64,000 nucleotides of DNA from an uncultured Actinomycetota bacterium (GCA_963826405.1 CAWGWR010000009.1:90211-154210), one strand, 5' to 3'; shown: positions 11,829-43,308, counted from the first letter of the stretch. Numbers and translations are program-made. The notes: generated by a model not told the origin, from the sequence alone.

Positions 11829-11831
11829 CCC

Positions 11832-12311
11832 GTGTCCGAGATCGCGCTGACCGTCCTCAAGGTCTTGTTCCTGGCCCTGCTGTGGCTGTTCATCTTCTCC
11901 GCGGTCTCGGTCATCCGCACCGACCTCTTCGGCAAAGCCGTCCCGGCTCCCGACCAGCCCGAGGCGCGCGAGCTCGAGTCGCCGTCCCCACCGGCCCGTC
12001 GCACCCGCCGTCCCCGTGGTGAGCCCCGGGTGCTCAGCATCGTCCAGGGCCAGCAGACCGGTGACGCCGCGGAGCTGACGCCGGGGCTGGTGATGATCGG
12101 CCGGGGCGCCGACTGCCAGCTCGTCCTGGACGACGACTACGTCTCCACCCGGCACGCGCGGGTGGTCGCCGGCGAGAGCGGGCTCTACATCGAGGACCTC
12201 GGATCGACCAACGGCACCTACGTCAACGGCGCCCGGATCACCGCCCCCACCGCCATCTCGATGTCGGACACCCTGCGGATCGGCAAGACGATCCTCAAGC
12301 TGGAGCCCTGA
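11832..12311 (+). CDS. fhaB: Membrane-anchored FHA protein FhaB
   Basis: N-terminal TM helix, IGRG..DDDYVSTRHA..DLGSTNGT; conserved position. Confidence 0.88.
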   Translation: MSEIALTVLKVLFLALLWLFIFSAVSVIRTDLFGKAVPAPDQPEARELESPSPPARRTRRPRGEPRVLSIVQGQQTGDAAELTPGLVMIGRGADCQLVLDDDYVSTRHARVVAGESGLYIEDLGSTNGTYVNGARITAPTAISMSDTLRIGKTILKLEP

Positions 12312-12315
12312 CCCG

Positions 12316-13704: not shown

Positions 13705-13705
13705 C

Positions 13706-16515: not shown

Positions 16516-16666
16516 CGGCGGTGCGCGTGGCAACCGGCCCGGGGGTCCGGGCGACCCGTCGAGCCGACGGCGGCGGACCGACCCTGCGGCGCCGTGGCCC
16601 AGAATGGCCCGGGGCACGGGGGACGGAGGCGCACGTCAGGGCGGCTGCAGGGAGAGGAACCACGAG

Positions 16667-26199: not shown

Positions 26200-27708
26200 T
26201 CAGCCGGCGTCGACCTCGACCCGTCGGTCGCGGTCCCCGCGACCGAACAGGCACCGGTAGAACCGGTCACTACCGTCGGCCTCCTGAGGAGGCAGGGCCA
26301 GGATCTCCCAGTCGGTGCGGCGGTCGGCGGCGGTGAGCAACCCGGACAGCACATCGGCGTCGCAGAGCCTCTTGACCGCAGGCAGGTCCTCCAACTGGGA
26401 CTGCCGGCGCACCTCGACCTCCAACGGCCCTGCTGCGAAGGTCTGGTAGACGTGGGTCTCGTCACAGGACTGCGGGGTGCCCAGGGAGGGCAGGTCGAAC
26501 ACCGAGATGATGCCCGCCCAGCACTCGGCCGTGGTCGGGCAGTAGCTGGTTCCTCCCAGCGTGTCCGAGCAGTCGTCGTACCCCTCCGGCAGCGCCCCCA
26601 GCGAGGTGCGACCCGGCGGGGTCGGGGACGGGGAGTCCTCCGCGGCCGGGCTTGAGGGCGCCGAGGTCGTCGGGGCTGCGGCCGGGGTGCTCGCTGAAGG
26701 GAGCGGCGGGGTGGCGGTCCCGGGCCCGCGGTCGAGGACCAACAATCCGGCCACCAGCAGGGCGGCGAGCACGACACCGACGAGCGGCACCACGAGCCCG
26801 CGGGTCCCGCGGCGCGCGGCCGAGGTGCTCTGCTGGCCGGTGTCGGCCTGCACGGCGACCATGCTCCGCTCGGGGTCCTCAGGCTGGTCCACGCCCAGCT
26901 CGAGGCCTGCGAGCCGGTCCCGGAGGGCAGCGGCGGTGGGTCGGGCGGCGGGGTCGAGGTCGAGGGCCGCAGACAGCACCCTCAACAACCGACGGCCGGT
27001 GCCGGGCACTGGCTCGAGCGGCTCGCGGTGCTTCGCCATCACCTCGGCCAGCGTTGGCGCCGCGCCGGACGGCCACCGCGGCGGACCGCCGGCCAGCAGG
27101 GCGTAGAGCGTGGCCGCGAGGGAGTAGACGTCGGCAGCGGGGGCCGGCGGCGCCCCCTGCAGCACCTCGGGAGCGGTGTAGGCGGGCGTGACGCCCTCGA
27201 ATGCCGTGGGGCGCGGGGCGTCCGGATCGGGCAGGGCCGCGAGCCCGAAGTCGGCCAGGCCCACCCGGTCGTAGGCGTCGATGAGGATGTTGGCGGGCTT
27301 CACGTCCCGGTGCAGCACCCCGCGGGCGTGGGTGGCCGCCAAGGCGTCGGCGATCTGCACGCCGATGTCGCGGACCCGCTCCTGCGAGGGCCGAGACCCC
27401 TCCTGGAGGTAGCGGGTGAGCGAGCCGCCCGGACACAGCTCCATGACGATGTAGGGCCGGTCGTCGGCCAGGATCCCTGCGTCGTGGACGGTGACGATCC
27501 CCGGGTGCGCCGACATCTGGCCGGCCGCCCCCGCCTCACGCAGGAACCGCAGCCGCTCGGGCTCCGCGTCCAAGCGTCGCTGGTCGACCTTCACCGCGAC
27601 GAGGCGGTCCAGCGTCTCCTGCCGCGCCTCCCAGACCACGGCAAAGCCGCCCCTGGCCAGGGGGCGCCAGTCCTTGAGCCCGGGGATCTGCGGAGGTTCG
27701 ATCGCCAC
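26200..27708 (-). CDS. Transmembrane Ser/Thr kinase with Cys-rich extracellular domain
   Basis: RGGFAVV, VAVK, HRDVKPAN, DFG, APE; TM helix, Pro/Thr linker, six Cys in the C-terminal domain. Confidence 0.9.
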   Translation of the reverse strand: MAIEPPQIPGLKDWRPLARGGFAVVWEARQETLDRLVAVKVDQRRLDAEPERLRFLREAGAAGQMSAHPGIVTVHDAGILADDRPYIVMELCPGGSLTRYLQEGSRPSQERVRDIGVQIADALAATHARGVLHRDVKPANILIDAYDRVGLADFGLAALPDPDAPRPTAFEGVTPAYTAPEVLQGAPPAPAADVYSLAATLYALLAGGPPRWPSGAAPTLAEVMAKHREPLEPVPGTGRRLLRVLSAALDLDPAARPTAAALRDRLAGLELGVDQPEDPERSMVAVQADTGQQSTSAARRGTRGLVVPLVGVVLAALLVAGLLVLDRGPGTATPPLPSASTPAAAPTTSAPSSPAAEDSPSPTPPGRTSLGALPEGYDDCSDTLGGTSYCPTTAECWAGIISVFDLPSLGTPQSCDETHVYQTFAAGPLEVEVRRQSQLEDLPAVKRLCDADVLSGLLTAADRRTDWEILALPPQEADGSDRFYRCLFGRGDRDRRVEVDAG

Positions 27709-27815
27709 CGCCCCACCTTAGGCAGGTCGTCCGCACCGCGTCGGGCTTCCCGGACGTGCACCCTTCGCGACGCCGGTTCCTGCCGGCGCTCGAGGCCGGC
27801 CGCTACCCTGCCCGC

Positions 27816-29927
27816 ATGAGCCGGAGCGTGTACGTGGCCTCGCCTGAGGGGCTGACGGGGAAGTCCGCCGTCGCGCTCGGACTGCTGGACGCCCTGGTCC
27901 GCGAGGTGGGCTCGGTCGGGGTCTTCCGGCCGCTGACCACGGCCAGGCACTCCGGCGACGACGACGTCGACGTCATCGTCGACCTGCTCGTCAGCCAGCC
28001 CGGTGTGGACCAGGAGTACGCGGACGCGCTGGGGGTCACCTACGACGCCGCCCGCACCGACCCGGACGAGGCGCTCCACGTCATCGTCGAGCGGTTCGGT
28101 CACCTGGCGGACCGCTACGAGGTGGTGCTGGTGCTGGGCTCGGACTACACCGACGTCTCCACCGGGACCGAGCTGAGCCTCAACGCGAAGATCGCCGCGA
28201 ACCTGGGCTCGCCCGTGGTGCTGGTGGTGCACGGCCGGGAACGGACGCCGGACCAGATCCGGGCGGCGGCGGACGGGGCCATCGCCGAGCTCCGGGCCAA
28301 CCACGCCCAGACCGTCGCCGTCGTGGCGAACCGGGTCGAGCCGGCAGAGGTCGAGGCGGCCATGGCCGCGCTGGCCGGGCTCGCCCCGCTGGTCGTCGCG
28401 GCCATCCCTGAGAGCGCGCTGCTCTCGGCCCCGACCTTCCGTGCCCTGGTCGAAGCGGCCGACGGTGCCCTCACCCTGGGCAACGCCAGCTGGATGGACC
28501 GGGAGTCCCTCGGCCTGGTCGTCGCCGCCATGAGCCTGCCCAACGTGCTGGCCCGGCTGGGGCCGGACGTGACCGTGATCGCCCCGAGCGACCGGACCGA
28601 CCTCATCCCGGGCCTGATGCTGGCCCACCAGTCCGGGACCTTCCCGACGCTGGCAGGCATCCTGCTGACTGGCGGGTACGCGCTGCCTGACACCATCCGT
28701 CGCCTGTCCGAGGGCGTCCAGCAGGACCTGCCCATCGCGCTGACCGACCTCGGCACCTTCACGACCGCCGAGCGGCTGATGCGGGTCCGCGGCCCGATGA
28801 CCAAGCGCTCCACGAGCAAGGTCGAGACCGCGCGGCGGCTGTTCGCCGAGCAGGTCGACCAGGCCGCGCTGCTGGCGGCGGTCGACGTGCCGGCGAGCGA
28901 GGTGCGCACCCCCCTGATGTTCGAGTACCAGCTGGTGGAGCGCGCCCGGGCCGACCGCAAGCACATCGTCCTCCCCGAGGCGACCGACGACCGCATCCTC
29001 CAGGCGGCGGCGATCCTGCTGCGGCGTGGCGTCGCCGACCTGACGTTGCTGGGCGAGGAGACCAAGGTGCGGGCTCGGGGGTCGGCGCTGGGCCTCGACC
29101 TGGACGCGGCCGCTGTCGTCTCCCCCACCGACCCGGAGCTGGTGGAGCGCTTCGCCGAGGCGTACACCGCGGCCCGCGCCCACAAGGGGATGACGTTGGA
29201 GAAGGCCCGGGAGCGGGTCACCGACATCTCCTACTTCGCCACGTTGATGGTGCACCTCGGGCTGGCCGACGGGATGGTCTCCGGAGCGGTCAACACCACC
29301 GCGCACACCATCCGTCCCGCCCTGGAGTTCGTGAAGACCCGGCCCGGAGTCGACACCGTCTCCAGCGTGTTCCTGATGTGCCTGGCCGACCGGGTGCTGG
29401 TCTACGGCGACTGTGCGGTGATCCCGGAGCCGACCACCGAGCAGCTCGCCGACATCGCCCTCTCCTCCGCCGACACCGCCCGGCAGTTCGGCGTCGACCC
29501 GCGGGTGGCGATGCTCTCCTACTCCACCGGCAGCTCGGGCTCCGGTGCCGAGGTGGAGAAGGTGCGCGCCGCGACCGCTCTGGTGGCTGAGCGCGCGCCC
29601 GACCTGCCCTTGGAGGGGCCGATCCAGTACGACGCGGCCATCGACCCCGGCGTGGCTCGCACGAAGCTGCCGAACTCGACGGTGGCCGGCCGCGCCACCG
29701 TGTTCATCTTCCCGGACCTCAACACGGGCAACAACACCTACAAGGCGGTACAGCGCAGCGCACACGCCGTCGCCATCGGACCCGTGCTGCAGGGCCTGCG
29801 CAAGCCCGTGAACGACCTCTCCCGCGGGGCGTTGGTGGAGGACATCGTGAACACCGTGGCCATCACCGCCGTCCAGGCCCAGGCGCTGACGGCCCCAGCG
29901 TCGCGTCCTCAGGGGAGCCAGGCGTGA
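27816..29927 (+). CDS. pta: Phosphate acetyltransferase (long form with DRTGG domain)
   Basis: GKS..ALG N-domain, IVLPE, DGMVSGA..TT..TIRPAL, GPIQYDAA, FIFPDLNTGNNTYKAVQR, GPVLQGL.KPVNDLSRG. Confidence 0.96.
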   Translation: MSRSVYVASPEGLTGKSAVALGLLDALVREVGSVGVFRPLTTARHSGDDDVDVIVDLLVSQPGVDQEYADALGVTYDAARTDPDEALHVIVERFGHLADRYEVVLVLGSDYTDVSTGTELSLNAKIAANLGSPVVLVVHGRERTPDQIRAAADGAIAELRANHAQTVAVVANRVEPAEVEAAMAALAGLAPLVVAAIPESALLSAPTFRALVEAADGALTLGNASWMDRESLGLVVAAMSLPNVLARLGPDVTVIAPSDRTDLIPGLMLAHQSGTFPTLAGILLTGGYALPDTIRRLSEGVQQDLPIALTDLGTFTTAERLMRVRGPMTKRSTSKVETARRLFAEQVDQAALLAAVDVPASEVRTPLMFEYQLVERARADRKHIVLPEATDDRILQAAAILLRRGVADLTLLGEETKVRARGSALGLDLDAAAVVSPTDPELVERFAEAYTAARAHKGMTLEKARERVTDISYFATLMVHLGLADGMVSGAVNTTAHTIRPALEFVKTRPGVDTVSSVFLMCLADRVLVYGDCAVIPEPTTEQLADIALSSADTARQFGVDPRVAMLSYSTGSSGSGAEVEKVRAATALVAERAPDLPLEGPIQYDAAIDPGVARTKLPNSTVAGRATVFIFPDLNTGNNTYKAVQRSAHAVAIGPVLQGLRKPVNDLSRGALVEDIVNTVAITAVQAQALTAPASRPQGSQA

Positions 29928-31087
29928 GCGCCACCGAGGGCGAGGGCACCTTGGTGCTGGTGCTCAACGCCGGGTCCTCCTCGCTCAAGTTCCAGCTGCT
30001 GGAGCCGTCCGGGGGCCAGGTGCACGCCCGGGGCACCGTGGAGCGGATCGGCGAGGACGGCAGCGACGTCGCCAACCACCACGCGGCGGTCGAACAGGTC
30101 TCGGCCGAGCTCGCCCGGGCCGGGGTCGACCTCGCCACTGCCGGGGTCCGGGCCGTCGGCCACCGGGTGGTGCACGGTGGACCGGACTTCTCCGACCCCG
30201 TCGTGATCGACGACGCCGTGGTCGCCGAGATCGAGGCGCTCAGCCCGCTCGCGCCCCTGCACAACCCCGGGGCGGTCGCCGGCATCAGGGCTGCGCGTGC
30301 TCAGCTGGACGTGCCGCACGTCGCCGTGTTCGACACCGCCTTCTTCGCCACCCTGCCAGCGGCGGCCGCCACCTACGCCCTGCCGCGGGAGCTGGCCGAG
30401 CGGCACCGCATCCGCCGCTACGGCATGCACGGCACCTCCCACAGCTACGTCTCCCGGGCGGTGCCGGAGCTGGTCGGCCGGCCGCTCGCGGAGCTGAACC
30501 AGGTCGTCCTGCACCTCGGCAACGGCTGTTCGGCCTCCGCCGTCCAGGGTGGACGGGCGATCGACACCTCGATGGGCCTCACCCCCCTGCAGGGGCTGGT
30601 GATGGGCACCCGCTCCGGCGACGTCGACCCCGGCCTTCACTCCTACCTGAACCGCGAGGCCGGGCTCACCATCGGTGAGGTCGACGCCCTGCTCAACCAG
30701 CGCTCAGGCCTCCGGGGCCTGAGCGGGGTCAACGACTTCCGACAGCTCCAGCAGCGACGCGGCGAAGGGGACGCGCACGCCGCCCTAGCCTTCGACGTCT
30801 ACGTGCACCGGCTCAAGCACTACCTGGGTGCCTACCTGGTCCAGCTCGGCCGGCTGGACGTGCTGACCTTCACCGCCGGCGTCGGGGAGAACAACCCGGC
30901 CCTGCGTGCGGCCGTGGTCGACGGCCTGGAGGGCCTGGGCCTCGCTGTGGACCCCGCCCGCAACGAGGCCCCCAGCCGCGAGGCCCGGGTGATCTCCCCC
31001 GACGGCTCCCCGGTCACCGTCGCCGTCGTGCCCACCAACGAAGAGCTCGAGATCGCCCGCCAGACCCTCGCCCTGCTGGAGGCCTGA
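29924..31087 (+). CDS. ackA: Acetate kinase
   Basis: VLNAGSSSLK, GHRVVHGG, APLHNP, VFDTAF, RRYGMHGTSH, DTSMGLTPL, FTAGVGEN, PTNEE. Confidence 0.96.
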   Translation: MSATEGEGTLVLVLNAGSSSLKFQLLEPSGGQVHARGTVERIGEDGSDVANHHAAVEQVSAELARAGVDLATAGVRAVGHRVVHGGPDFSDPVVIDDAVVAEIEALSPLAPLHNPGAVAGIRAARAQLDVPHVAVFDTAFFATLPAAAATYALPRELAERHRIRRYGMHGTSHSYVSRAVPELVGRPLAELNQVVLHLGNGCSASAVQGGRAIDTSMGLTPLQGLVMGTRSGDVDPGLHSYLNREAGLTIGEVDALLNQRSGLRGLSGVNDFRQLQQRRGEGDAHAALAFDVYVHRLKHYLGAYLVQLGRLDVLTFTAGVGENNPALRAAVVDGLEGLGLAVDPARNEAPSREARVISPDGSPVTVAVVPTNEELEIARQTLALLEA

Positions 31088-31144
31088 CCGACCGCCCCAC
31101 TCGCGGTACTGGCGTCCACGCACGAGGGAACCGAGGGGAGCAGC

Positions 31145-31320
31145 GGCACGAGGGCACGACGGGGACTCACCGGCACGAAGGCACGAAGGGAACTCACCGG
31201 CGCCGGGCGTGGATGGGTCTGGCGGGAGCCCGCGCACGCGGACACGGGGAAGCAGAAAGCCGTGCGCGGGCGGATGGTTGCCCGGCGCCGGTGAGTGCCC
31301 GCAGTGCCCGGAAGCGCGCC
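31145..31320. repeat. Nested palindrome with tandem 27-bp repeat (REP-like element or structured RNA)
   Basis: 27-bp direct repeats 31145-71 and 31172-98 (24/27 identical); perfect 17-bp inverted repeat 31192-31208 / 31280-31296 enclosing a perfect 11-bp stem 31228-38 / 31261-71. Confidence 0.7.
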
Positions 31321-31345
31321 GGCACGGGGCCCCTAGGCTGCCTCC

Positions 31346-32113
31346 ATGGCCACAGCACTGGTGACGGGCGGCACCTCGGGGATCGGGGCGGCGTTCGCGC
31401 GGGCGTTGGCGGCCCGGGGGGACGACCTGGTGCTCGTCGCCCGGGACGCCGCACGGCTGGAGCAGACCGCGACGGAGCTGACCGAGCGCTTCGGGATCGC
31501 GGTCGAGGTGCTTCCCGCGGACCTGGCGGCCCGGCAGGACCTCGAGCGGGTCGCGGCGCGGCTGGGCGAGGTGGAGCGGCCGGTGGACCTGCTGGTCAAC
31601 AACGCGGGCTTCGGCATCCGCCAGCGCCTCACCGACGAGGACCTGTCGGGGTTGGAGCACGGCTTCGACGTCATGGTGCACGCGGTGCTCGTGCTGGCGG
31701 CGGCCGCCGGGCGCGCGATGACGGCCCGCGGACAGGGTGCCATCGTCAACGTCGGCAGCACCGCCGGCTACGTCACCATGGGCGGCTACTCCGCTCTCAA
31801 GGCCTTTGTCGGCGTCTACACCGAGGGGTTGGCCAACGAGCTGCACGGCACCGGCGTGAGCGCCACCGTCCTGTGCCCGGGCTGGGTGCGGACGGAGTTC
31901 CACGAGCGCGCAGAGATCGGCACCGGGTCGATCCCCTCCTGGATGTGGCTGGACGCCGACCGGCTGGTGGCCGACTGCCTGCGCGATGTCGCCGCAGGGA
32001 AGGTGATCTCGATCCCGTCGCGGCGTTACCAGGCTCTGATCCTCCTCGCCCGGCTCGCTCCGCGGCCGCTGGTGCGCCGCGCCTCGCGCCTGTTGTCGAC
32101 AGGACGGCACTGA
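31346..32113 (+). CDS. Classical SDR oxidoreductase, likely NADP(H)-dependent
   Basis: TGGTSGIG, VARD, NNAG, YSALK (YxxxK); TAGGCT -10 six nt before the ATG. Confidence 0.9.
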   Translation: MATALVTGGTSGIGAAFARALAARGDDLVLVARDAARLEQTATELTERFGIAVEVLPADLAARQDLERVAARLGEVERPVDLLVNNAGFGIRQRLTDEDLSGLEHGFDVMVHAVLVLAAAAGRAMTARGQGAIVNVGSTAGYVTMGGYSALKAFVGVYTEGLANELHGTGVSATVLCPGWVRTEFHERAEIGTGSIPSWMWLDADRLVADCLRDVAAGKVISIPSRRYQALILLARLAPRPLVRRASRLLSTGRH

Positions 32114-32198
32114 CCCGACCTGCGGCTCCCTCGCCGACGCGCGTCCTCGCGGGGCCGACGGGATGAAGACTGTCGGACGGTTCCGATACTGTGTTGAC

Positions 32199-32879
32199 GT
32201 GCCCAGCCGCAGCCGTTACACCTCGCCCGTGCACGCTGGGGCGCGGTTCATCGCCCAGCGGCTGATCCTCAAACCGGCCATCTGGCGCATGACCAGGGTG
32301 ACCGTGCTCGGCGAGGAGAACCTCGCGGGCGTCTCCGGTCCGTATGTGGTGGTGTCCAACCACAGCTCCCACCTCGATGCCCCGCTGATCATCTCGGCGC
32401 TGCCGCGCAAGCTCTCCCGCTACGTCGCCGCCGGAGCCGCTGCGGACTACTTCTTCGACGTCTGGTGGCGCAAGGGCCTCACCTCGCTGTTCTTCAACGC
32501 CTTCCCGGTTGACCGCACGGGGCTCCGGGGCCGCAAGGGCCTGGCCACCAGCCTGCTCGACGACGGCGTCCCCCTCCTGCTGTTTCCCGAGGGCACCCGC
32601 TCGCGGACGGGTGAGATGGGCTCGTTCAAGCCCGGCGCCGCCGCGCTCTGCGTCAGCCGCGACGTACCCTGTCTGCCGGTGGCCATCGTGGGCGCCTCGG
32701 AGGCCATGCCGCATGGCCGGAGCTGGCCCGACCGTGGCCGGCCGCCGGTCTACGTCACCTTCGGGGAGCCGCTGCGACCGGAGGAGGGCGAGAAGGTCGC
32801 CCAGTTCTCCGAGCGGATCGCCAAGGAAGTGCGCAGCCTGTACGACTACACCACCAGCTACCGCGAGGACCACGCCTGA
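32199..32879 (+). CDS. PlsC-family lysophospholipid/glycerolipid acyltransferase
   Basis: NHSSHLD (HX4D), AAADYFF, FPVDR, FPEGTRS. Start uncertain (ATG 32163 or GTG 32199). Confidence 0.9.
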   Translation: MPSRSRYTSPVHAGARFIAQRLILKPAIWRMTRVTVLGEENLAGVSGPYVVVSNHSSHLDAPLIISALPRKLSRYVAAGAAADYFFDVWWRKGLTSLFFNAFPVDRTGLRGRKGLATSLLDDGVPLLLFPEGTRSRTGEMGSFKPGAAALCVSRDVPCLPVAIVGASEAMPHGRSWPDRGRPPVYVTFGEPLRPEEGEKVAQFSERIAKEVRSLYDYTTSYREDHA

Positions 32880-32955
32880 CCAGGCCGTGCCGAGCACCGT
32901 CGGCACGCCGGGGGCAGCACCGGGACCCTCCCGGACGAGGAGAAGGAGTGCGGCC

Positions 32956-34647
32956 ATGCCCGCCGTTCAGCACATGAAGTGGTACGGCTGGGGCGTTGAA
33001 GGCGTCAGCTTCCACCACGAGGACAAGCCAGGCCTGCAGCCTTTTGTGCAGGAGATCATCGACCTCGACCTGAACACCCCGCCAGGCCGCAGGACCCAGC
33101 TCTCCGACCTCGACATCCCCGCACCGTTGATCGGCGACGAGCTGCTCGAGCAGCTGCGCGGCATCGTCGGAGCGGAGAACGCCGTCACCGAGGACGAGGA
33201 CCGCGTCGTCCACACCTACGGCAAGAGCATCCGCGACCTCATGCGGCTGCGCGGCAACGACCTGCCTCGTGTCCCTGACGTCATCCTCTACCCGGGCGAC
33301 GAGGCCGAGGTGCAGCAGGTCGTCGACGCCGCGATCGCCGCTGACGCGGTGCTGATCCCCTTCGGTGGCGGCAGCAACATCGTCGGCAGCCTGCAGCCCC
33401 CGGAGGCGGAGACCCGCCCCGTACTCAGCCTGGACCTTGGTCGTCTCACCCGGGTGCTCGAGGTCGACGAGGAGTCCGGCCTGGCCCGGATCCAGGCGGG
33501 GGCGCTCGGTCCCGACCTCGAGGGCCAGCTGAACGCCCGCGGCTGGACGCTGGGGCACTTCCCGGACAGCTTCACCCACTCCACACTCGGGGGCTGGGTG
33601 GCCACCCGGTCCTCGGGCATGCAGTCCGACAAGTACGGCGACATCGCCGACATCACCCGCGGCCTGCGGATGGTCATGCCGGGCCGGGTCCTGGAGCTGC
33701 ACGCCCTGCCCAGCACCTCCAGCGGTCCCAGCGTCCGCGAGATGGTGCTCGGTTCCGAGGGCCGGCTCGGGGTCATCACCGAGGTCACCGTGCAGGTGCA
33801 CCGCGTGCCCGAGGAGCGCGTGATCCTCGGTTACCTGTTCCCCTCCTTCGAGGCCGGCGTCGCCGCCATGCAGGAGATCTCGACCAGCGACGCCTCGCCG
33901 TCGGTCACCCGGGTGTCCGACGCCGGGGAGACGCGCTTCTCCTTCTCCACGCGCAAGAAGTCCAAGGGCGTCTCGGTGTCCGGTCTGGTGAGCAAGGGCC
34001 TGTTCAAGGTGCTCGAGCGCCGGGGGTGGGACCTCAGCGCCGTCTGCCTCTCCTTCGTGGGCTACGAGGGCGGTCCCGACCACGTCTCCCGTCAGAAGGC
34101 GATCGTCAAGAAGATCATCGCCAAGCACGGCGGCATCACCCTGGGCAAGGGTCCCGGCGAGCTGTACGACCAGAAGAAGTTCGACACGCCCTACATCCGG
34201 GATTTCCTGCTGGACCGCGGCGCCGCGGCCGACGTCTCCGAGACGGCCGCTCCGTGGTCGCAGCTGGTGCCGATGTACGAGAACGTCACGGCCGCCGCCC
34301 GCAAGGCGTTCGCCCAGATCGGCGTCCAGGGCTGGATCATGTGCCACCTGTCGCACAGCTACCACTCGGGCGCCTGCCTGTACTTCACCTTCGCGTTCCG
34401 GCACGACGACGACGAACCGCTCGTCCGCTACGACATCGTGAAGTCGGCGATCCAGCAGGCGTTCGTCGACACCCATGGCACGCTCTCGCACCACCACGGA
34501 GTCGGGACCGAGCACGCTCCCTGGTTGAAGCAGGACATCTCCCCTGCCGGTGTGGACCTGATGGAGAGCCTCTTCGCCGGCGTCGACCCGGGTCGCAACC
34601 TCAACCCGGGCAAGATCACGGCAGCCCCGCCGACCTCGCGCGCCTGA
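32956..34647 (+). CDS. agpS: Alkyl-dihydroxyacetonephosphate synthase-like FAD protein
   Basis: MKWYGWG, PFGGGSNI, GHFPDS..STLGGWVATRSSG, GSEGRLGVITE, GACLYFTF, LSHHHGVG; AAGGAG RBS. Confidence 0.85.
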   Translation: MPAVQHMKWYGWGVEGVSFHHEDKPGLQPFVQEIIDLDLNTPPGRRTQLSDLDIPAPLIGDELLEQLRGIVGAENAVTEDEDRVVHTYGKSIRDLMRLRGNDLPRVPDVILYPGDEAEVQQVVDAAIAADAVLIPFGGGSNIVGSLQPPEAETRPVLSLDLGRLTRVLEVDEESGLARIQAGALGPDLEGQLNARGWTLGHFPDSFTHSTLGGWVATRSSGMQSDKYGDIADITRGLRMVMPGRVLELHALPSTSSGPSVREMVLGSEGRLGVITEVTVQVHRVPEERVILGYLFPSFEAGVAAMQEISTSDASPSVTRVSDAGETRFSFSTRKKSKGVSVSGLVSKGLFKVLERRGWDLSAVCLSFVGYEGGPDHVSRQKAIVKKIIAKHGGITLGKGPGELYDQKKFDTPYIRDFLLDRGAAADVSETAAPWSQLVPMYENVTAAARKAFAQIGVQGWIMCHLSHSYHSGACLYFTFAFRHDDDEPLVRYDIVKSAIQQAFVDTHGTLSHHHGVGTEHAPWLKQDISPAGVDLMESLFAGVDPGRNLNPGKITAAPPTSRA

Positions 34648-34907
34648 CACCTCTCCCCTGACGCGATGTCGGCCGCGCTGGGACGTTGCCAACCTGGTAC
34701 CGGTCCGGCCCTCTGCCCACCGGTCCCGCGCGGCTAGCCTGGAAGGCGCAGCACGCAGAGGCGGGGGATGGGCTCAGGACCGGGGGGTCCCGAACGCCCG
34801 GGGTAGGTGGAACGCACTCGGCCTTCCCGCGTTCCCCGCGCGGTCTGGCCGATCCCCTGTGCGGGCGCCTATCCCGGGTCAGGGAAGGGCGAGGACGCCC
34901 CCAGTCC

Positions 34908-36638
34908 TCAGAGGACGTCACCGGGCAGAGGCAGTGTGGCCTCCGGCTGGATGAGCTCATCGGGCGGGAGAGCCACTTCCTGCAACAGTTCCGGCTCCTC
35001 CGGGGGCTCCGGCGCCTCCGGATCCGCGGGCACGTCGGCCTTCGGGAACCCGCGGGGGTCGAACGCTCCGGCCTTGACGATGAGGTCGCCGACGGCGAAA
35101 CCCGAGCCCGGGTTGAAGCGGGGGTTGAGCGTGAAGTACGAGGTCGGGTCCATGGCCAGCAGCCCGAGGAACACCTCGGCGACGATGCGACCACCGACGG
35201 GCCCGAGCCGCTGGCCGCCGCTGAGCTCAGCCTCCTTGAGGATGTAGTACCAAAGCGGCGCCTTCTTGGTCCAGTCCTTCTCTGTCAGCCCCAGCTGCTC
35301 ATTGGTGAGGGGCTTGACCCCCATCGCCATCGCGACGTCCTGACCGCACGGCAGCCCGATCCGCTTGCCGCGCAACAGGTTCCGCTCGGCGAGGGCGACG
35401 ATGGCGCCAGCGGTCGGAGCCACCACGGTGGACGGCAGGGTCGAGAGCGGCAGGGAGATCTGCGTGTCGATGCGCCGGGCCATGTTGCGGTCGTCCGGGC
35501 TCTCCAGCCCCGGGATGTCGAAGAAGTAGTTCCAGTCCACCCACAGGTCGTGCGGTATGGGCCGGTTGCCGCGCAGGTCCTCGTAGCCGTCGCGGGCGAA
35601 GATCGGCACCGTGTGCTGGTCCTGCACCTCGTACTCGGCCCGGATCATCGAGTGCCCGTAGCGGTAGGCAGCCCCGGAGAACTCAATGGGCATGTACGGG
35701 TTGGCCTTGTTGCGAGGGAGGTAGCAGGTGTTCCGAGCGGTCAGAGTTCCGTCGGAACGCCGCGTCAGGATCGAGTCGACCATCTTCTGGCCAACGATGC
35801 GGGGCAGGAAGTCGTGGACGATCAGCCACTGGAAGTGGAAGCGCGTCTGCTTCCGGGCCTCCTCGAAGCTGAGCCCCGAGTCGCGCAGCGTGTTGTGCAG
35901 ACGCAGGAACACGGTGTGCAGCTGGGCCACGATCAGGTTCTCGTCGTTGCGCGGGTCGCCCAGGAAGGCCTTGCCGACCTCGTCACGCGGCAGGTCCACC
36001 AGACCGTCGTGCTCGTGCACCAGCAGGTAGCCGGGTCGGGCCGGGTCGTAGAGCTCGGGGCTGGCCGCGGGTCCCCCACCGTAGACACTGCCCAGGTCGA
36101 AGCGCGGTGAGTCGAAGTTCTTGGTGGCACGCGGGTCCTTCTGCTGCAGGCTCAGCGGTGTCTTGTCCAGGGTGATGTCGTGGTCGGCGAACTGCCCGAA
36201 GTAGATGTAGCCCGCCGGCATCGACGTGTCGTACTCGGCGTCGCTGAACCGGACATCGGACAACGGGGCCTTGCCGTCGTTCATCCGCTTGGCCAAGGCC
36301 TTGAGCAGCGTGTCGGAGGGCTCGTAGGCCGGTAGCTTCTTGAACATCAGACCGAACCGTGCCTCCTGGCCACGGCCGAGCTTGGCGGCGACGTCGAGAC
36401 CGCGGAGCCCCTGACCGTGCGTGCCCTTCAGCGCCCGACGGCGAGCGGCGACGGCGCGGAGGGTGCCGACGGGGCCGGCGTGGATCCCCCCGGCCACCAG
36501 GGCGGCGAGGGCGCCACCCAGGACGGTGCGCCGGCGGACCTGGCCCGCTGCGCCGGAAGCGTCCTCCGGTGCAGAGGCGGGACCGGCGGCGGTCCGTCCG
36601 GTGAACGGGCAGGTCGCGCCTGGTGCACGGTTGAGCAT
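34908..36638 (-). CDS. Tat-exported animal-type heme peroxidase (peroxidase-cyclooxygenase superfamily)
   Basis: FGQFADHDIT, FDLGSVYG, GDPRNDENL, LHTVFLRLHN, AAYRYGHSM, RNLLRG, PLWYYILKEAE, GPVGGRIVAE; RRRTVL Tat motif. Confidence 0.88.
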   Translation of the reverse strand: MLNRAPGATCPFTGRTAAGPASAPEDASGAAGQVRRRTVLGGALAALVAGGIHAGPVGTLRAVAARRRALKGTHGQGLRGLDVAAKLGRGQEARFGLMFKKLPAYEPSDTLLKALAKRMNDGKAPLSDVRFSDAEYDTSMPAGYIYFGQFADHDITLDKTPLSLQQKDPRATKNFDSPRFDLGSVYGGGPAASPELYDPARPGYLLVHEHDGLVDLPRDEVGKAFLGDPRNDENLIVAQLHTVFLRLHNTLRDSGLSFEEARKQTRFHFQWLIVHDFLPRIVGQKMVDSILTRRSDGTLTARNTCYLPRNKANPYMPIEFSGAAYRYGHSMIRAEYEVQDQHTVPIFARDGYEDLRGNRPIPHDLWVDWNYFFDIPGLESPDDRNMARRIDTQISLPLSTLPSTVVAPTAGAIVALAERNLLRGKRIGLPCGQDVAMAMGVKPLTNEQLGLTEKDWTKKAPLWYYILKEAELSGGQRLGPVGGRIVAEVFLGLLAMDPTSYFTLNPRFNPGSGFAVGDLIVKAGAFDPRGFPKADVPADPEAPEPPEEPELLQEVALPPDELIQPEATLPLPGDVL

Positions 36639-36695
36639 GGTCGGTTCTTCCCCCTGTGGATTCGACTGGTACCAGTCTGGCCTCGACCGGCTCCG

Positions 36696-36748
36696 GCAGC
36701 AGACGTTTTGAGGGGTTCCCCTACCCCCCTGAGTGGGGGGGTGTGCCA
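36696..36748 (-). promoter_or_regulatory. Shared upstream motif, copy 1 (before peroxidase)
   Basis: GCAGCAGACGT-...GGGG...CCCC-ACCCCCCTGAGTGGGGGGG-TGTGCCA; near-identical to 38840-38891. Confidence 0.7.
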
Positions 36749-37009
36749 CCGTATGAAGGGCTTCGCCCTCCACCCGAAGCGGCAGAGGGCCCGCCGCGGG
36801 GAACGGCGAGCCCTCACCCAGCTGTCCGGAGCAGGCCGCCCTCAGGGGATGAGAGGGCCGCTCTCAGCTCAGCCGAGCACCCGTAGGTGCGGCGGACCCA
36901 CGTCGCGGATCAGTCGCCCCCACAACGGTTGCGCGCACCACGATCCTCGGTGCCGGACCGGGGCACCACGCCTACCGGAGGGTGGTCGGGCACCCCCTCG
37001 ATGAGGGGG

Positions 37010-39866: not shown

Positions 39867-40499
39867 TCAGATGTGCTGCCCGTCCTCGACGCCGGGGGTG
39901 TGTCCGCCGCTGCTCACGTGTGCGGGGGACGGGCCCTCGGTGTGGGCGGGGGTGGCGAGGGTCGCGCCCGCCAGCCCCACGACGGTGAGGGCGGCAACGA
40001 GGCCGAGACCGATCAGCTGGGCAGCGGCGGGCAGTCCGCGGACCCGCAGCGGGCCGGTGACGCGGAGCAGGACCAGCGCCGCCCCGCCCGCCACCACGGC
40101 AAGCAGGCAGGCCGCCGCATCGGCCAGGGCGACCGGTTCGGGTTCACCGGCGTCGGGCCCGAACGGCAGGCCGGTGGTGCGTGAGACCAGCCAGACCAGC
40201 AACGGCCCCACCGACACCGCCAGGGCGCCGAGCAGCCGCGGACGGTCGACCCGGCGCAGCAGCGCCACGCCCACGACGAGCGCGGTGGCAGCGAGAAGGG
40301 CGAAGAACACCCCGGCAGCAGGCCAGTGGTCCACATGCTCGCGCACCACGGCAGCGTGCACGGCGGCCCCACCGAGCAGGCTGGCGACGAGCAGGACGCG
40401 GACAACTTCACCCGCGTCCTGCCCCCGGAACGGGCCGGTGGGCACCGGGCCGGAGGCCGGTGGGGCCAGCGGCTCGGTGACCACCGTTGTGGGGGTCAT
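39867..40499 (-). CDS. His-containing membrane protein, translationally coupled to the multicopper oxidase
   Basis: HAAVVREHVDHW, five hydrophobic segments, His-rich tail; ATGA overlap with the oxidase stop. Confidence 0.75.
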   Translation of the reverse strand: MTPTTVVTEPLAPPASGPVPTGPFRGQDAGEVVRVLLVASLLGGAAVHAAVVREHVDHWPAAGVFFALLAATALVVGVALLRRVDRPRLLGALAVSVGPLLVWLVSRTTGLPFGPDAGEPEPVALADAAACLLAVVAGGAALVLLRVTGPLRVRGLPAAAQLIGLGLVAALTVVGLAGATLATPAHTEGPSPAHVSSGGHTPGVEDGQHI

Positions 40500-42342
40500 G
40501 CTTCGAGCGACCACTGGACCATCATGCTCGTGCCCATGTCCATCGACGCCTTCGTCGCCACCTTGGCGTCGGTGGAGTCGGTGGTGGAGAACTGGGTCAT
40601 CATGTCGTGGTCCTCGTGGATCAGGTTGTGGCAGTGCATGACGTACTTCCCGGTGACGGGCTTGGTCGGGTCGATCTCGTCGGCGGCGGTGAACCGCATG
40701 ACCAGCTCGATGGTCTCGTTCGGGCCGACGTAGACAACGTCCTTCCAGCCCTTCTCGTACTCATAGGGGGCCCGGCCGTTGCGGGAGATGATCTGAAAGT
40801 CCACGAGGTGGATGTGGATCGGGTGGAACCACCCACCCGACTTGTTCTCCAACACCCACTTCTCGACGGTGTTCACCCGGGGAGCCGCCGCGACCCGACC
40901 GTTCCATGGCAGCCCGTTGATCACCCACAGACCGTTCTTCCGCTCGAAACGGAACCGCCGCGGGTTGGCGAGGTTGACGGCCTCCTTCTCCTCCGCGCCG
41001 AACTCGTAGTCGTTGAGCCGGGCCGGGACCGGGCTGCTGGCCACGACCGGACCAGCGGCCACGAACTGCATCACCTGCCCCATGTCGCCATCACCGGCCC
41101 GGTTGAGGAGGGTGAACTTCTCCCCGGGCTTGGCGTTGGTGAAGTCGACGACGAACTCGTAGCGCTCGGCCATCCCTTGACGCCACTCCTTGACCACCAC
41201 CGGCTTGGTCAACAGACCCGCCTCGGTCGCGATCGCGGTGACCGTCGGCGCCGGAGTGCCTGCGCTGCCAGCGGACACCTCAAGGCTGTACCCGCGGGAC
41301 AGGTCGGCCACGAGGATGCGGAACCGGTACCGGGTGCGGTCCACCGTCATCTTCGGCCACGCCCGCCCGTTGACCAAGATCACGTTGCCCCACAGGCTGT
41401 CGTGGCCCTTGTCGTCGTAGGCGACCTTGCCCTTCTCGTTGAACTGCATGTCCGCGATCACCATCGGCACGTCGTAGTCGCCCTTGGGCAGCTTGTCGAG
41501 GTTGAACTTCGCGATGCGGGCGGCGTCGGGGTCCTGGATGAACATGCCCACCAGACCCTTGTAGACGTTCCCCGCCGTCTGGTGCATCCCGTGGTCGTGG
41601 TACCAGAGGGTGCGGGCCTCCGCCCGGTTCGGGTAGCGGTACACGTGGGTGCCGTCATAGATCGGGCCGCCGTCGAACTCCGACACCTTCCCGGCCGGCA
41701 CCGTCCCCTTCTTGTAGGTCAGGTCGTCGGGGTGACCGTCGTGCGCCGGCTGCGTCGGCGAGGAGTGCAGGTGGGTGCTCGTCGGGTTCGGCAGCTCGTT
41801 GGTGTGAGAAACCACCGTGTACGCACCGTTCTCGGTCTGGCGGAAGAGCGGGCCGGGGTAGATGCCGTTGTAGCCCCAGATCTCCGTGCGCGGGAACGGC
41901 GACGGCAGCAGGTCGGCCGAATCCACCTTCTGCGTCACGTCGTAGTAGTTCACCCGGGCCTGCTGACCCATCACCGTCTCCGACACCGTCCGGTCCGGCT
42001 CAACCACCGGCATGATCAACAGCTCGCGCTGGAACTTCGGCACCCTCGGCCCCTTCATCGGAGCGCTACCACTGATCACCCCCGGCACCAACGCCTGCTG
42101 AACCGCATCCGACTGACCGCCGAACAGGCCGGTCCGGGCCAACACCGGACCCGAAACCAACACCCCCGCACCAGCAACCGCCATCTGAACCAACGACCGC
42201 CGCGACACCCCGCCCGGGGCCCCTGCGACCGGCGAACCGTCAGTCGTGTGCTCGTTCCCGCGGTCTGCGGTTTTTTCTCGTTCTCGTTCTCGTTCTCGTT
42301 CTCGTTCTGGAGCTTGACTACGTTGTGACGCGAGATCTTCAT
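40496..42342 (-). CDS. Tat-exported multicopper oxidase (bilirubin oxidase/CotA type); probable frameshift in the A6 run at 42271-42276
   Basis: STHLH, WYHDH, HPIHIH, HCHNLIHEDHDMM copper motifs; SRRSLV Tat motif. The RBS-preceded ATG 42342 is out of frame; in-frame alternative GTG 42208. Confidence 0.9.
42271..42306. repeat. Simple sequence repeat (CTCGTT)5 plus T6 run
   Basis: TTTTTT followed by five exact CTCGTT units. Confidence 0.95.
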
Positions 42343-42532
42343 GGTGCTTGTCCCCCCGGACATCCAGTGCTGAAGCGGGCCAGCGCTCCAAGGCTCCTGG
42401 TCCCCGGAGCGGTCCCGGTCGGCTTGTGGTCCGCCCGGTTACCCGCTGCCTCAAGCCTGGATCAGCCGGTTCCTTCCCAGAACCCTCACGGGTGGGGGAC
42501 GCCGCCCCCCCCAAACACGGGGGTGGCTCTGG

Positions 42533-42943
42533 TCAGCCGGACACGAGGCCGGCGGCCAGGTCCTCGGGCCAGGCGGTACCGCCGCGAGCCACATGGCGCA
42601 CGGCCTCCAGCACCAGCGCCGCATCGGCACCTTTCGCCAGGTAGCCGACGGCGCCGAAGGCCTCCGCAGCCGCGCGGTTCCGGCTCACTGGGTCGGAGGT
42701 GAAGAAGAGGACGCGGGCGGTGGATCCCCCTCGCTGGAGATCGGCAGCAGCCTCCAGCCCGGACCGAGTCGTCATCCGCACGTCCATCAGCACAACCTGC
42801 GGCTCCAGCTCGGCGACGGCCTCGACCACGCCGGCACCGTCGGCGCACTCCCCAACGGCCTCCAGGTCGTCGCTGGCGTTCAGCAGGTCGACGAGGGTTC
42901 CGCGGAAGAAGTCGTGGTCGTCCACGACAAGAACGCGCGTCAT
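42533..42943 (-). CDS. Receiver-only response regulator
   Basis: VLVVDDH, VVLMDVRM, FFTS, YLAK; no output domain (136 aa). Confidence 0.88.
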   Translation of the reverse strand: MTRVLVVDDHDFFRGTLVDLLNASDDLEAVGECADGAGVVEAVAELEPQVVLMDVRMTTRSGLEAAADLQRGGSTARVLFFTSDPVSRNRAAAEAFGAVGYLAKGADAALVLEAVRHVARGGTAWPEDLAAGLVSG

Positions 42944-43308
42944 CCGGGCCTCTCCTCACCTGGGGGGCGGTCAGCGGAACCGCTCGTCCCAGGATGGACA
43001 TCTCAGAGGTAAATTTCCACCCACCCGGGGGGGGTTTCGGATCCCCCAGGATGAGGGGTCCGGTGATGCCCCCCTCGTCGGGGGGAACCATTCCACCCCC
43101 TCCTGAGGCTGCCGGCTGGTTTCGACGAGCACCAGACTCGGGCTTTGATGTGCGGGGTGACCGCAAGACCCCCTCGTCGTCGGCCGTGAGGCTGCACCGG
43201 GCACCAGAACGCCCTATGACCCGTCGCCGGGTCCTCAGGAGAGAACGTGATGACCGCAAGCTGCACGACCACCCGGCCAGCCGGGCCAACCTCCCGCAGA
43301 GGTCGGAG

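Follow-up and report, generated by a model that had tools for sequence, protein, structure and literature searches.

A run of three genes in DNA from an uncultured soil bacterium of the Actinomycetota raises the question of whether such organisms carry an operon for ether lipid synthesis. Ether lipids and plasmalogens are usually viewed as eukaryotic, myxobacterial or anaerobe traits; plasmalogen-derived dimethylacetals have been known for 25 years in aerobic actinobacteria such as Subtercola. The window, the whole stretch of 64,000 nucleotides that was analysed, encodes on its + strand, to which all coordinates refer, a classical SDR (31346-32113, 255 aa), a PlsC/LPLAT-type acyltransferase (32199-32879, 226 aa from a GTG start) and a homolog of FAD-dependent alkylglycerone-phosphate (alkyl-DHAP) synthase, or AGPS (32956-34647, 563 aa). 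A preliminary description placed these genes consecutively with gaps of about 85 and 76 bp, and ORF listing and GC3-based gene calling return the same arrangement and spacing. The best-supported reading, with a probability of roughly 0.65, is that the triad is an operon serving the branch of glycerolipid synthesis in which ether bonds form, most likely making ether-linked glycerolipids. The analysis shows that the flavoprotein belongs to the AGPS family and has an intact active site, that the triad is conserved in an operon-like manner, and that it is associated with a fatty-alcohol-forming reductase (FAR); the final lipid class and expression in the window's organism are what we infer.

The flavoprotein and its active site

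The FAD protein combines a FAD_binding_4 domain (PF01565, E 7e-31) with a FAD-oxidase_C domain (PF02913, E 1e-38). Among solved structures it matches Dictyostelium AGPS (PDB 2uuu) at E 9.6e-118, with ~40% identity over 505 residues, and a second AGPS structure (PDB 4bby) at E 9e-92, and the next family, D-lactate dehydrogenase, reaches only E 5e-21. The catalytic residues R352, R447 and Y508 of the Dictyostelium enzyme (PMC3509576) align to Arg319 (33910-33912), Arg415 (34198-34200) and Tyr476 (34381-34383), and the HHH loop corresponds to His512-514 (34489-34497); all are invariant in 68 orthologs. In the AGPS-specific N-terminal region, KWYGWG (residues 8-13, 32977-32994) has KWNGWG as its counterpart in the two solved AGPS structures, and the K, W, G, W and G of this KW(N/Y)GWG motif are likewise invariant in the 68 orthologs. 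Three of the motifs quoted in the preliminary description, KWYGWG, GACLYF (residues 472-477) and SHHHGVG (residues 511-517), stand as given. The fourth was misspaced: it reads GHFPDSFTHSTLGGW, with three residues rather than two between PDS and STLGGW.

By its sequence, the window protein is unambiguously a member of the AGPS family, and all its catalytic residues are conserved. Public databases already name its orthologs AGPS, as alkyldihydroxyacetonephosphate synthase (JGI, UniRef). An exact-sequence look-up found no record of the window protein itself, and its nearest named relatives come from Friedmanniella luteola (92%) and Microlunatus spp. (91%).

An ordinary VAO-family oxidase or dehydrogenase of the D-lactate or glycolate type, sitting among unrelated neighbours, would be an alternative. 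In its favour, the triad lies just downstream of pta-ackA, and the flavoprotein partially matches the TIGR00387 glcD model (122 bits). That score is far under the model's cutoff of 568 bits, however, and the triad is kept together in lineages without a pta-ackA neighbourhood. Because AGPS structures outscore any dehydrogenase by about 100 orders of magnitude, and because the AGPS-specific catalytic residues are invariant along with the N-terminal KW(Y/W)GWG region, the oxidase reading was rejected as extremely improbable.

Conservation of the triad and its partner enzymes

Conservation of the triad, which the preliminary description had proposed to look for across the Propionibacteriales, extends well beyond that order. 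The sample comprises 80 loci from Propionibacteriales, Micrococcales, Jiangellales, Streptomyces and one Pseudonocardiales MAG. In 79 of them AGPS is immediately preceded by the acyltransferase gene, and in 28 the acyltransferase stop and the AGPS start overlap by a few bases; the SDR gene is adjacent, upstream of the acyltransferase, in nearly all. Since this gene order recurs across 80 independent actinobacterial loci, the arrangement is far from chance. In Kribbella, an F420-dependent LLM oxidoreductase lies between acyltransferase and AGPS in place of the SDR, and this exchange suggests that a reductase is a required partner of the other two enzymes.

The 258-bp spacer between ackA and the SDR gene (31088-31345), which may or may not belong to the system, is the presumed site of the triad promoter. 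Within it lie three direct repeats of 20-27 nt as well as a nested, imperfect inverted repeat. These are not claimed as a regulatory element, as the spacer folds no better than shuffles (z = -1.3) and the repeat element is not conserved among relatives. A consensus scan of 30900-35100 detected no sigma-70 promoter or terminator, and an Rfam scan of the whole window returned only a tRNA-Leu. A Shine-Dalgarno-like run, GAGGAGAAGGAG, precedes the AGPS ATG. In a search for RNA evidence of co-transcription, the triad sequence was matched only in soil-metagenome DNA runs, which counts against the operon reading.

The acyltransferase has PF01553 (E 5e-22) as the sole domain in its 226-238 aa. An alternative in-frame ATG lies upstream at 32163, but GC3 is ~58% in 32163-32198 versus 92% across the gene, and the annotated Friedmanniella luteola ortholog also has 226 aa. 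The protein carries all four LPLAT motifs, which are invariant in 61 orthologs, with NHSSHLD (HX4D) at 32358-32378, FPVDR at 32502-32516 and FPEGTRS at 32583-32603.

Synteny and analogy suggest that this enzyme acts as a DHAP (glycerone-phosphate) O-acyltransferase. Its sequence, that of a small PlsC-like acyltransferase, fits DHAP and lysophosphatidate acceptors alike, which counts against the DHAP reading. The pathway could be the same with the acyltransferase working after AGPS, as a dedicated sn-2 acyltransferase for 1-O-alkyl-glycerol-3-phosphate, while a promiscuous housekeeping glycerol-phosphate acyltransferase furnishes acyl-DHAP. The PlsC-like size of the protein favours this sn-2 role, as does its only solved relative, Thermotoga maritima PlsC (5kym, E 9e-16), which is an sn-2 LPA acyltransferase. 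So do its dissimilarity to the large acyltransferase domains found in the GNPAT/FARAT proteins of myxobacteria and eukaryotes and a match of 59 bits to TIGR00530 (AGP acyltransferase). That match is under the cutoff of 103 bits, however, and Aas-type domains match equally well, also below cutoff. Aas-type domains acylate the sn-1 position. Furthermore, AGPS requires acyl-DHAP, which bacteria do not normally provide, and the tight coupling of acyltransferase and AGPS genes, down to the overlapping stop and start, mirrors the eukaryotic partnership in which GNPAT works in complex with AGPS. On balance the sn-2 role is unlikely, if still a serious contender, and DHAP is the preferred acceptor. 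A Rosetta-stone search of the 150 best representatives yielded no informative acyltransferase-AGPS or acyltransferase-FAR fusions; its long matches were fusions of AMP-binding, carrier-protein and acyltransferase domains, which are uninformative on the DHAP acceptor.

The reductase is a classical SDR, matching PF00106 at E 1.8e-40 versus only 6e-4 for PF01370; DHRS7B of the eukaryotic pathway is a classical SDR as well. It carries TGGTSGIG (31364-31387) and a Ser-Tyr-Lys triad of Ser138 (31757-31759), Tyr148 (31787-31789) and Lys152 (31799-31801), which is invariant in 60 orthologs together with Arg33 (31442-31444), located after strand beta-2. Under the standard SDR coenzyme rule an Arg after strand beta-2 denotes NADP(H), so the invariant Arg33 points to this coenzyme. 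The substrate is probably alkyl-DHAP, given the gene neighbourhood and the analogous eukaryotic step, which would make the enzyme an NADPH-dependent 1-alkyl-DHAP (acyl/alkyl-DHAP) reductase. The SDR has no equivalog-level NCBIfam match, which counts against the assigned role. Its best NCBIfam match, mycolate reductase, is ruled out as an identity by a score of 166 bits against a cutoff of 380.

Fatty alcohol supply and the proposed pathway

In the proposed route, the PlsC-type acyltransferase would use a long-chain acyl thioester to esterify DHAP at C1, giving 1-acyl-DHAP. AGPS would then form a covalent flavin-N5 adduct, release the fatty acid and admit a long-chain fatty alcohol to yield 1-O-alkyl-DHAP, an exchange expected to be non-redox and oxygen-independent. 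Finally, the classical SDR would reduce the C2 ketone with NADPH, and the resulting 1-O-alkyl-sn-glycerol-3-phosphate could enter ordinary phospholipid or glycolipid assembly by sn-2 acylation and addition of head groups. The earlier proposal that the triad supplies all three ether-lipid steps is supported computationally by the AGPS residues, synteny, FAR neighbours and the case of Subtercola lobariae (see below), with the acyltransferase and SDR substrates assigned by inference. If so, the triad would be a minimal gene set for heterologous alkyl-glycerolipid production.

The fatty alcohol must come from another enzyme. The preliminary description saw no fatty-alcohol-forming reductase in the window, and tblastn, profile HMMs and a Pfam survey of the 51 called genes agree. 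Nor do about 50 Propionibacteriaceae loci have a FAR in the 6 kb around their triads, which counts against the pathway. In other orders, namely in Micrococcales and Jiangellales, and in a Streptomyces, a FAR (PF07993 + PF03015) fused to a HAD-IB phosphatase adjoins the triad. The fusion gene neighbours the SDR gene in all 24 non-Propionibacteriales loci showing it; in Jiangella, Ruania and Occultella it runs in the same direction and has overlapping stops. We propose that this FAR-HAD fusion supplies the missing fatty-alcohol step where it occurs; in the window's organism the alcohol would be made by a reductase encoded elsewhere in the genome. The SDR-acyltransferase-AGPS module, sometimes with FAR-HAD, offers a testable genetic basis for actinobacterial ether lipids.

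Known ether lipid routes and actinobacterial lipids

The "eukaryote-style" label given to the triad holds for the proposed order of the chemistry but not for uniqueness. The AGPS name is already in databases, and of the known systems the MXAN_1674-1676 operon of Myxococcus xanthus comes closest. It combines a reductase, a FAR-GNPAT fusion and AGPS, and is tied genetically to ether lipids (Lorenzen et al. 2014, as summarised in bioRxiv 10.1101/2025.10.10.681575). According to the same preprint, deletion of AGPS blocks the AGPS route to alkyl and alkenyl ether lipids. Both operons consist of three genes for an AGPS homolog, an acyltransferase and an NAD(P)-dependent reductase. In M. xanthus the acyltransferase and a fatty acyl-CoA reductase form one fused protein (FARAT), whereas the acyltransferase of the window is a stand-alone, PlsC-like protein of 226 aa. 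The M. xanthus reductase, a member of the epimerase/dehydratase (extended SDR) family, is analogous, not orthologous, to the PF00106 enzyme of the window. Likewise, FAR is fused to the acyltransferase in M. xanthus, fused to the HAD phosphatase in other actinobacteria and absent from the window. We regard the triad as a known pathway in a new architecture. It also bears on AGPS evolution, where discussion has so far been confined to a myxobacterial origin of the eukaryotic pathway.

The eukaryotic peroxisomal pathway (FAR1, GNPAT, AGPS and DHRS7B/PexRAP) follows the same order of chemistry, with DHRS7B as alkyl-DHAP reductase (PMC13200781). The ~40% identical Dictyostelium AGPS has the catalytic Arg/Arg/Tyr and HHH loop in common with the window protein. 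Unlike the eukaryotic pathway, the window has its genes clustered in an operon, an acyltransferase that is not GNPAT-like in size and an AGPS without a peroxisomal targeting extension.

Mycobacterium tuberculosis Rv3107c, presumably not flanked by an SDR-acyltransferase pair, is another actinobacterial AGPS homolog, with its function given by annotation. It is annotated as agpS, alkyl-DHAP synthase (PMC4928086), a further precedent against a uniquely eukaryotic character. The elbA-E/ElbD system of myxobacteria and Acidobacteriota SD4 is also an oxygen-tolerant bacterial alkyl ether route with FAR, acyltransferase and HAD-type modules. However, ElbD is large and multidomain, and the elbA-E cluster is without AGPS; no ElbD-like gene was found in the window. 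The anaerobic plasmalogen/alkyl-ether synthases PlsA/PlsR and Ger are another bacterial ether-lipid source with wholly different chemistry, a reductive conversion of an existing ester bond that uses a different, oxygen-sensitive enzyme type. The PlsA/PlsR route occurs in Propionibacteriales (PMC9702350) and is a rival source for the ether lipids of Propionibacterium propionicum and Cutibacterium. Outside the triad, the Pfam survey of the window's called genes lists no domain suggestive of an ether-forming enzyme.

Evidence from lipids comes from the aerobe Subtercola lobariae, which carries the triad cluster and yields ~20% dimethylacetals, a plasmalogen signature, under aerobic growth (PMC5945732). 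The ether-linked glycolipids of P. propionicum, mentioned in the preliminary description, are real according to Pasciak 2003, as cited in PMC11237483. The searchable literature yielded no genes assigned to these glycolipids, in line with the preliminary description, and likewise no gene assignment for the Subtercola dimethylacetals, no paper linking actinobacterial AGPS to lipids, and no report of ether lipids or dimethylacetals in Friedmanniella or Microlunatus. The last of these counts against the pathway. Metagenomic screens alone note Agps homologs in Actinobacteria. Should the triad make ether lipids, alkylglycerol and dimethylacetal biomarkers in the environment could also stem from a large, abundant soil phylum.

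These lipids also bear on whether the product is a bulk membrane lipid. The AGPS chemistry may be real and lead elsewhere, to a neutral or glycosylated alkylglycerol serving as a storage or surface lipid or as a signal, perhaps made only under specific conditions, perhaps from an unusual alcohol. The lipids described in P. propionicum are glycolipids, not phospholipids, and the AGPS route of M. xanthus is only a minor contributor. A non-bulk product is further favoured by the missing FAR near the Propionibacteriaceae triads and by the FAR-HAD-IB fusion in other orders, which implies that a phosphorylated intermediate is dephosphorylated. Against this, dimethylacetals make up ~20% of the Subtercola fatty-acid fraction, pointing to bulk lipids there, and the Pfam survey of called genes gave no sign of a secondary-metabolite cluster in the window. 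We regard a non-bulk product as improbable.

A broader and decidedly doubtful proposal is that the triad is the core of a phylum-wide, oxygen-compatible ether-lipid/plasmalogen pathway in Actinomycetota, built unlike the myxobacterial and eukaryotic ones, with FAR-HAD added in Micrococcales, Jiangellales and some Streptomyces. Surveys of the window's 51 called genes (tblastn, profile HMMs and Pfam scans) found no di-iron or PEDS1/CarF homologs. In Microbacteriaceae, Ruania, Occultella and a Streptomyces, the cluster also encodes two soluble, ferritin-like proteins, as yet uncharacterised, of the acyl-ACP-desaturase / R2lox fold, one paralog of which retains E/EXXH/E/EXXH di-iron ligands. Under this proposal the pair would be a candidate CarF/PEDS1-independent plasmanyl (vinyl-ether) desaturase. 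The idea that the "a" paralog alone explains the dimethylacetals is weakened, as the ligand-poor "b" paralog is the only one seen in the flanking sequence fetched for S. lobariae and Labedella. If true, a ferritin-like desaturase would account for reports, going back to 2000, of dimethylacetals in aerobic Subtercola, Agreia and Kineococcus, and also for peaks misread as "C14:0 2-OH" by MIDI.

The gene triad and its products

The three genes run consecutively on the + strand, as the preliminary description had placed them, with gaps of 85 and 76 bp. ORF listing and a GC3-based gene call agree on an SDR of 255 amino acids (31346-32113, +), a PlsC-type acyltransferase of 226 (32199-32879, +) and an FAD protein of 563 (32956-34647, +). 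Composition analysis puts the window at 72% G+C, with no anomaly around the triad. A ribosome-binding run, GAGGAGAAGGAG, precedes the FAD protein gene. An in-frame ATG at 32163 lies upstream of the acyltransferase GTG start at 32199. It is an unlikely start, because GC3 is ~58% in the 36 nt that follow it (32163-32198) versus 92% across the gene, and because the ortholog in Friedmanniella luteola is annotated with 226 amino acids. These 36 nt are probably an untranslated leader, so that the longest-ORF start would mislead.

By its sequence, the FAD protein is a member of the alkyl-DHAP synthase (AGPS) family with an intact active site. It combines FAD_binding_4 and FAD-oxidase_C domains, and its best match among all PDB sequences is Dictyostelium AGPS (2uuu, E 9.6e-118; ~40% identity over 505 aligned residues), with guinea-pig AGPS (4bby) at E 9e-92. 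Mutagenesis of the Dictyostelium enzyme defined R352, R447 and Y508 (PMC3509576). Transfer through the PDB-match alignment (chain index plus 3) gives R319, R415 and Y476 as their counterparts and H512-514 as that of the HHH loop; neither these residues nor an N-terminal KW(Y/W)GWG vary among 68 actinobacterial orthologs. The AGPS motifs quoted in the preliminary description are all present, with the small correction that the spacing in GHFPDSFTHSTLGGW is three intervening residues, not two. The flavoenzyme is thus very probably a true alkyl-DHAP synthase. A VAO-type oxidase is effectively excluded: the next PDB family after AGPS, D-lactate dehydrogenase, reaches merely E 5e-21 against 9.6e-118, and TIGR00387, the model for glycolate oxidase, gives 122 bits where its cutoff is 568.

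The first gene product is a classical SDR (PF00106, E 2e-40) with a TGxxxGxG motif and invariant Ser138, Tyr148 and Lys152. In SDR enzymes, an Arg after strand beta-2 favours NADP(H), and the invariant Arg33 at this position therefore suggests NADP(H) as the preferred coenzyme. The best curated match, mycolate reductase, scores 166 bits, far below its cutoff of 380.

The middle gene product is a PF01553 acyltransferase with conserved NHSSHLD (HX4D), FPVDR and FPEGTRS. Among solved structures, Thermotoga PlsC (5kym, E 9e-16) is its sole relative. The acyltransferase sequence fits acylation of DHAP and sn-2 acylation of 1-alkyl-G3P alike. The latter, which would keep the pathway and change only the role of this enzyme, is the main rival to a DHAP acyltransferase, though we consider it unlikely. 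A fusion search for the acyltransferase (1.8 billion representatives; 150 best examined) found no informative fusion, the long matches being AMP-binding/carrier-protein/acyltransferase proteins. Among its nearest non-orthologous relatives are such proteins of 810-850 amino acids (P0340, P0341, P0369, P0371, P0377, P0381, P0382 and P0388 of a representative-protein search), in which an AMP-binding enzyme and a phosphopantetheine carrier precede a C-terminal acyltransferase; we read them as self-loading acyltransferases. Frigoribacterium orthologs (loci L061, L066, L068, L069, L075 and L080; ~5100-5920) carry a ~60-residue insertion between HX4D and FPEGTRS, and their tblastn matches split or fall to 48% identity.

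Conservation and neighbours in other actinobacteria

A search that covered one genome for each species found at least 381 loci encoding relatives, and the best 80 were analysed. The acyltransferase gene lies immediately upstream of AGPS in 79 of these 80 (tblastn), with Kribbella as the exception, and almost all have the SDR gene upstream of the acyltransferase gene. The SDR gene is inverted in four loci and missing solely at contig ends or in Kribbella; in a few Propionibacteriaceae loci, 1-3 kb of inserted genes separate it from the acyltransferase. In 28 loci, the end of the acyltransferase gene overlaps the beginning of AGPS, in most cases by 4 nt, and in 45 more the gap is 100 nt or less, a pattern indicative of translational coupling. 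Clustering of all ORFs in the 80 loci yields the triad alone as the universally conserved set. The triad is thus conserved like an operon, both across Propionibacteriales, where conservation had been proposed as a check, and in further orders. Carriers include Microlunatus, Friedmanniella, Enemella and the avian-gut ‘Avipropionibacterium’ in Propionibacteriales; Subtercola, Frigoribacterium, Agreia, Herbiconiux, Labedella, Cnuibacter, Georgenia, Ruania and Occultella in Micrococcales; and Jiangellales, Phytoactinopolyspora, one Streptomyces and one Pseudonocardiales MAG.

The Kribbella yunnanensis locus (L063) has no SDR gene nearby and carries, between acyltransferase and AGPS, a gene for a TIGR03621 F420-dependent LLM-class oxidoreductase (5029-5973, +; 345 bits). 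This protein may have taken the place of the ketoreductase without being its ortholog; if so, this one locus would mark a reductase as a required partner.

Outside Propionibacteriales, the triad is associated with an 800-amino acid fusion of a fatty acyl-CoA reductase (FAR; PF07993, E 1e-44, and PF03015) to a HAD-IB phosphatase (PF12710, E 9e-36; TIGR01490 above cutoff). This FAR-HAD gene adjoins the SDR gene in 24 of the 24 non-Propionibacteriales loci among the best 80 that show it (L042, L043, L053-L055, L059-L062, L064-L066, L068-L070 and L072-L080; for example, L054:2149-4446, +, and L042:1061-3511, -), and supplies there the fatty-alcohol step that had been noted as missing. Within 6 kb of the triad, it is absent from ~50 Propionibacteriaceae loci, and it is also absent from the window. 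Jiangella has all four genes in one direction, FAR-HAD first and then SDR, acyltransferase and AGPS, and their stops overlap. Ruania and Occultella have two ferritin-like genes ahead of FAR-HAD and oriented like it, whereas in Microbacteriaceae and the one Streptomyces the unit of ferritin-like genes and FAR-HAD runs divergently from the triad.

The ferritin-like genes flank FAR-HAD as a pair in L061 (146-973, -, and 3307-4128, -) and L065 (291-1154 and 1186-1977, +), and pairs also occur in L062, L064, L066, L068-L070, L073, L075-L078 and L080. They encode two 270-amino acid paralogs named just ‘hypothetical’ or ‘ferritin-like’ in databases. Paralog a retains the E/EXXH/E/EXXH di-metal ligands, and paralog b is without several of them. 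An AlphaFold model of paralog a (pLDDT 83) most resembles soluble acyl-ACP desaturases and R2-like ligand-binding oxidases (R2lox), with TM scores of 0.56-0.61 and weak E-values near 5e-3. The pair is a doubtful candidate for a new type of vinyl-ether desaturase, a reading weakened because the fetched flank of Subtercola lobariae (L043), like that of Labedella (L042), shows the ligand-poor paralog b alone.

Proposed pathway and lipid records

In the pathway that we favour, the acyltransferase would first form 1-acyl-DHAP. Tyr476 of AGPS would then deprotonate C1 to give a flavin-N5 adduct, as in the mechanism described in PMC3509576, with expulsion of the fatty acid and addition of a fatty alcohol to yield 1-O-alkyl-DHAP. 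The SDR would use NADPH to reduce C2, producing 1-O-alkyl-sn-glycerol-3-phosphate, and general lipid enzymes would complete the molecule. We place the probability of this full three-step assignment at roughly 0.65; the acyltransferase acceptor, the SDR substrate, the source of the alcohol here, the final lipid class and expression are inferred components of the scheme.

Neither the enzyme family nor its chemistry is new, an operon of this kind has a bacterial precedent, and the protein already bears the name AGPS in databases. As described in one report (10.1101/2025.10.10.681575), the three-gene operon of Myxococcus xanthus comprises MXAN_1674 (NAD-dependent epimerase/dehydratase family), MXAN_1675 (FAR and GNPAT modules) and MXAN_1676 (AGPS, ~42% identical to the human enzyme), and deletion of MXAN_1676 blocks the AGPS route to ether lipids. 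The same report states that mammalian GNPAT works in complex with AGPS; the mammalian alkylglycerone-phosphate reductase is DHRS7B (PMC13200781). Myxobacterial clusters also include a phosphatase, like the HAD part of FAR-HAD. FAR in M. xanthus is joined to the acyltransferase, whereas in the actinobacterial build it is joined to HAD, the PlsC-like acyltransferase is a separate protein coupled to AGPS, and the reductase is a classical SDR. This build appears to be new. Agps homologs were noted in actinobacterial MAGs from a Black Sea screen (PMC11868695), and M. tuberculosis Rv3107c carries the annotation agpS (PMC4928086). Our literature search found no description of the actinobacterial triad or its link to lipids, and no ether lipids in Friedmanniella or Microlunatus.

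The ether glycolipids of Propionibacterium propionicum, mentioned in the preliminary description, are real (Pasciak et al. 2003, as cited in PMC11237483). However, Propionibacteriales have orthologs of PlsA/PlsR, the anaerobic ether-lipid route (PMC9702350), which are therefore a rival source for these lipids. In a second rival reading, which we regard as improbable, the product would be not a bulk phospholipid but an alkylglycerol, neutral or glycosylated, or a lipid made conditionally; the fusion to HAD and the glycolipids of P. propionicum point in this direction.

Subtercola is more telling. Locus L043, with SDR, acyltransferase, AGPS, FAR-HAD and one ferritin-like gene, is from S. lobariae CGMCC 1.12976, which we take to be the same type strain as DSM 103962. 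Subtercola species that are aerobic, S. lobariae DSM 103962 among them, yield 7-17% iso-C16:0 dimethylacetal as well as other dimethylacetals (PMC5945732). Dimethylacetals are a sign of plasmalogens, and the MIDI system readily mistakes them for 2-hydroxy acids (PMC7472656). The triad and a plasmalogen signature thus co-occur at the species level. The wide distribution of the triad in the phylum also appears to be new, as does its coincidence with the unexplained dimethylacetals of aerobic actinobacteria.

Surroundings of the triad in the window

The nearest named AGPS orthologs are from Friedmanniella luteola (92%), Microlunatus lacustris and M. capsulatus (both 91%), and the sequence was found solely in soil-metagenome DNA runs and in no RNA runs; the window therefore originates from a soil Propionibacteriaceae. 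An exact-sequence look-up returned no database record for the FAD protein.

The triad has housekeeping surroundings, with pta-ackA directly upstream and FhaA/FhaB/PstP/RodA/PbpA/PknB, rplI, MurJ and a polyA/CCA polymerase also present. Searches of the 64 kb by tblastn, profile HMM and a Pfam survey of 51 called genes found no other lipid gene, FAR or CarF (PEDS1-type plasmanyl desaturase), which bears out the earlier statement that the window holds no fatty-alcohol-forming reductase; PlsA/PlsR was likewise absent among the domains of the surveyed genes. The pta-ackA pair (27756-31087) adjoins the triad upstream in most Friedmanniella/Microlunatus-type loci (many of L001-L056) and in no other order, an adjacency that looks lineage-specific, without an evident functional link.

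The ackA-SDR spacer (31088-31345) contains three 20-27-nt direct repeats (31120-31194) and a 29-nt imperfect inverted repeat (31180-31208/31280-31308) enclosing a perfect 11-nt one (31228-31238/31261-31271). Its predicted folding is no better than that of shuffles (z = -1.3), and conservation of the element in relatives was not found. No promoter or terminator consensus was detected in 30900-35100, and tRNA-Leu was the sole Rfam match in the whole window.

Convergent with AGPS lies a gene for a 621-amino acid haem peroxidase of the PF03098 animal-haem-peroxidase family (34908-36773, -), with a twin-arginine signal (RRTVLGG) and no NCBIfam match; it is beside the triad in none of the 80 related loci. 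In a copper-handling patch (40496-44610), genes encode a multicopper oxidase (40496-42145, -), a receiver domain on its own (42533-42925, -) and a fused CopC-CopD protein (43216-44610, +); a HisKA_3 kinase and a LuxR-type regulator come next. A 1200-amino acid protein (59312-62914, +) has its MurJ lipid II flippase domain confined to residues 24-489, the other ~700 residues being without a Pfam match at E ≤ 1e-5. A cluster conserved in actinobacteria, FhaA-FhaB-PP2C phosphatase-RodA/FtsW-PbpA-PknB(PASTA), occupies 11049-18508 (+) with a single kinase gene, and a second Ser/Thr kinase is encoded at 26200-27708 (-).
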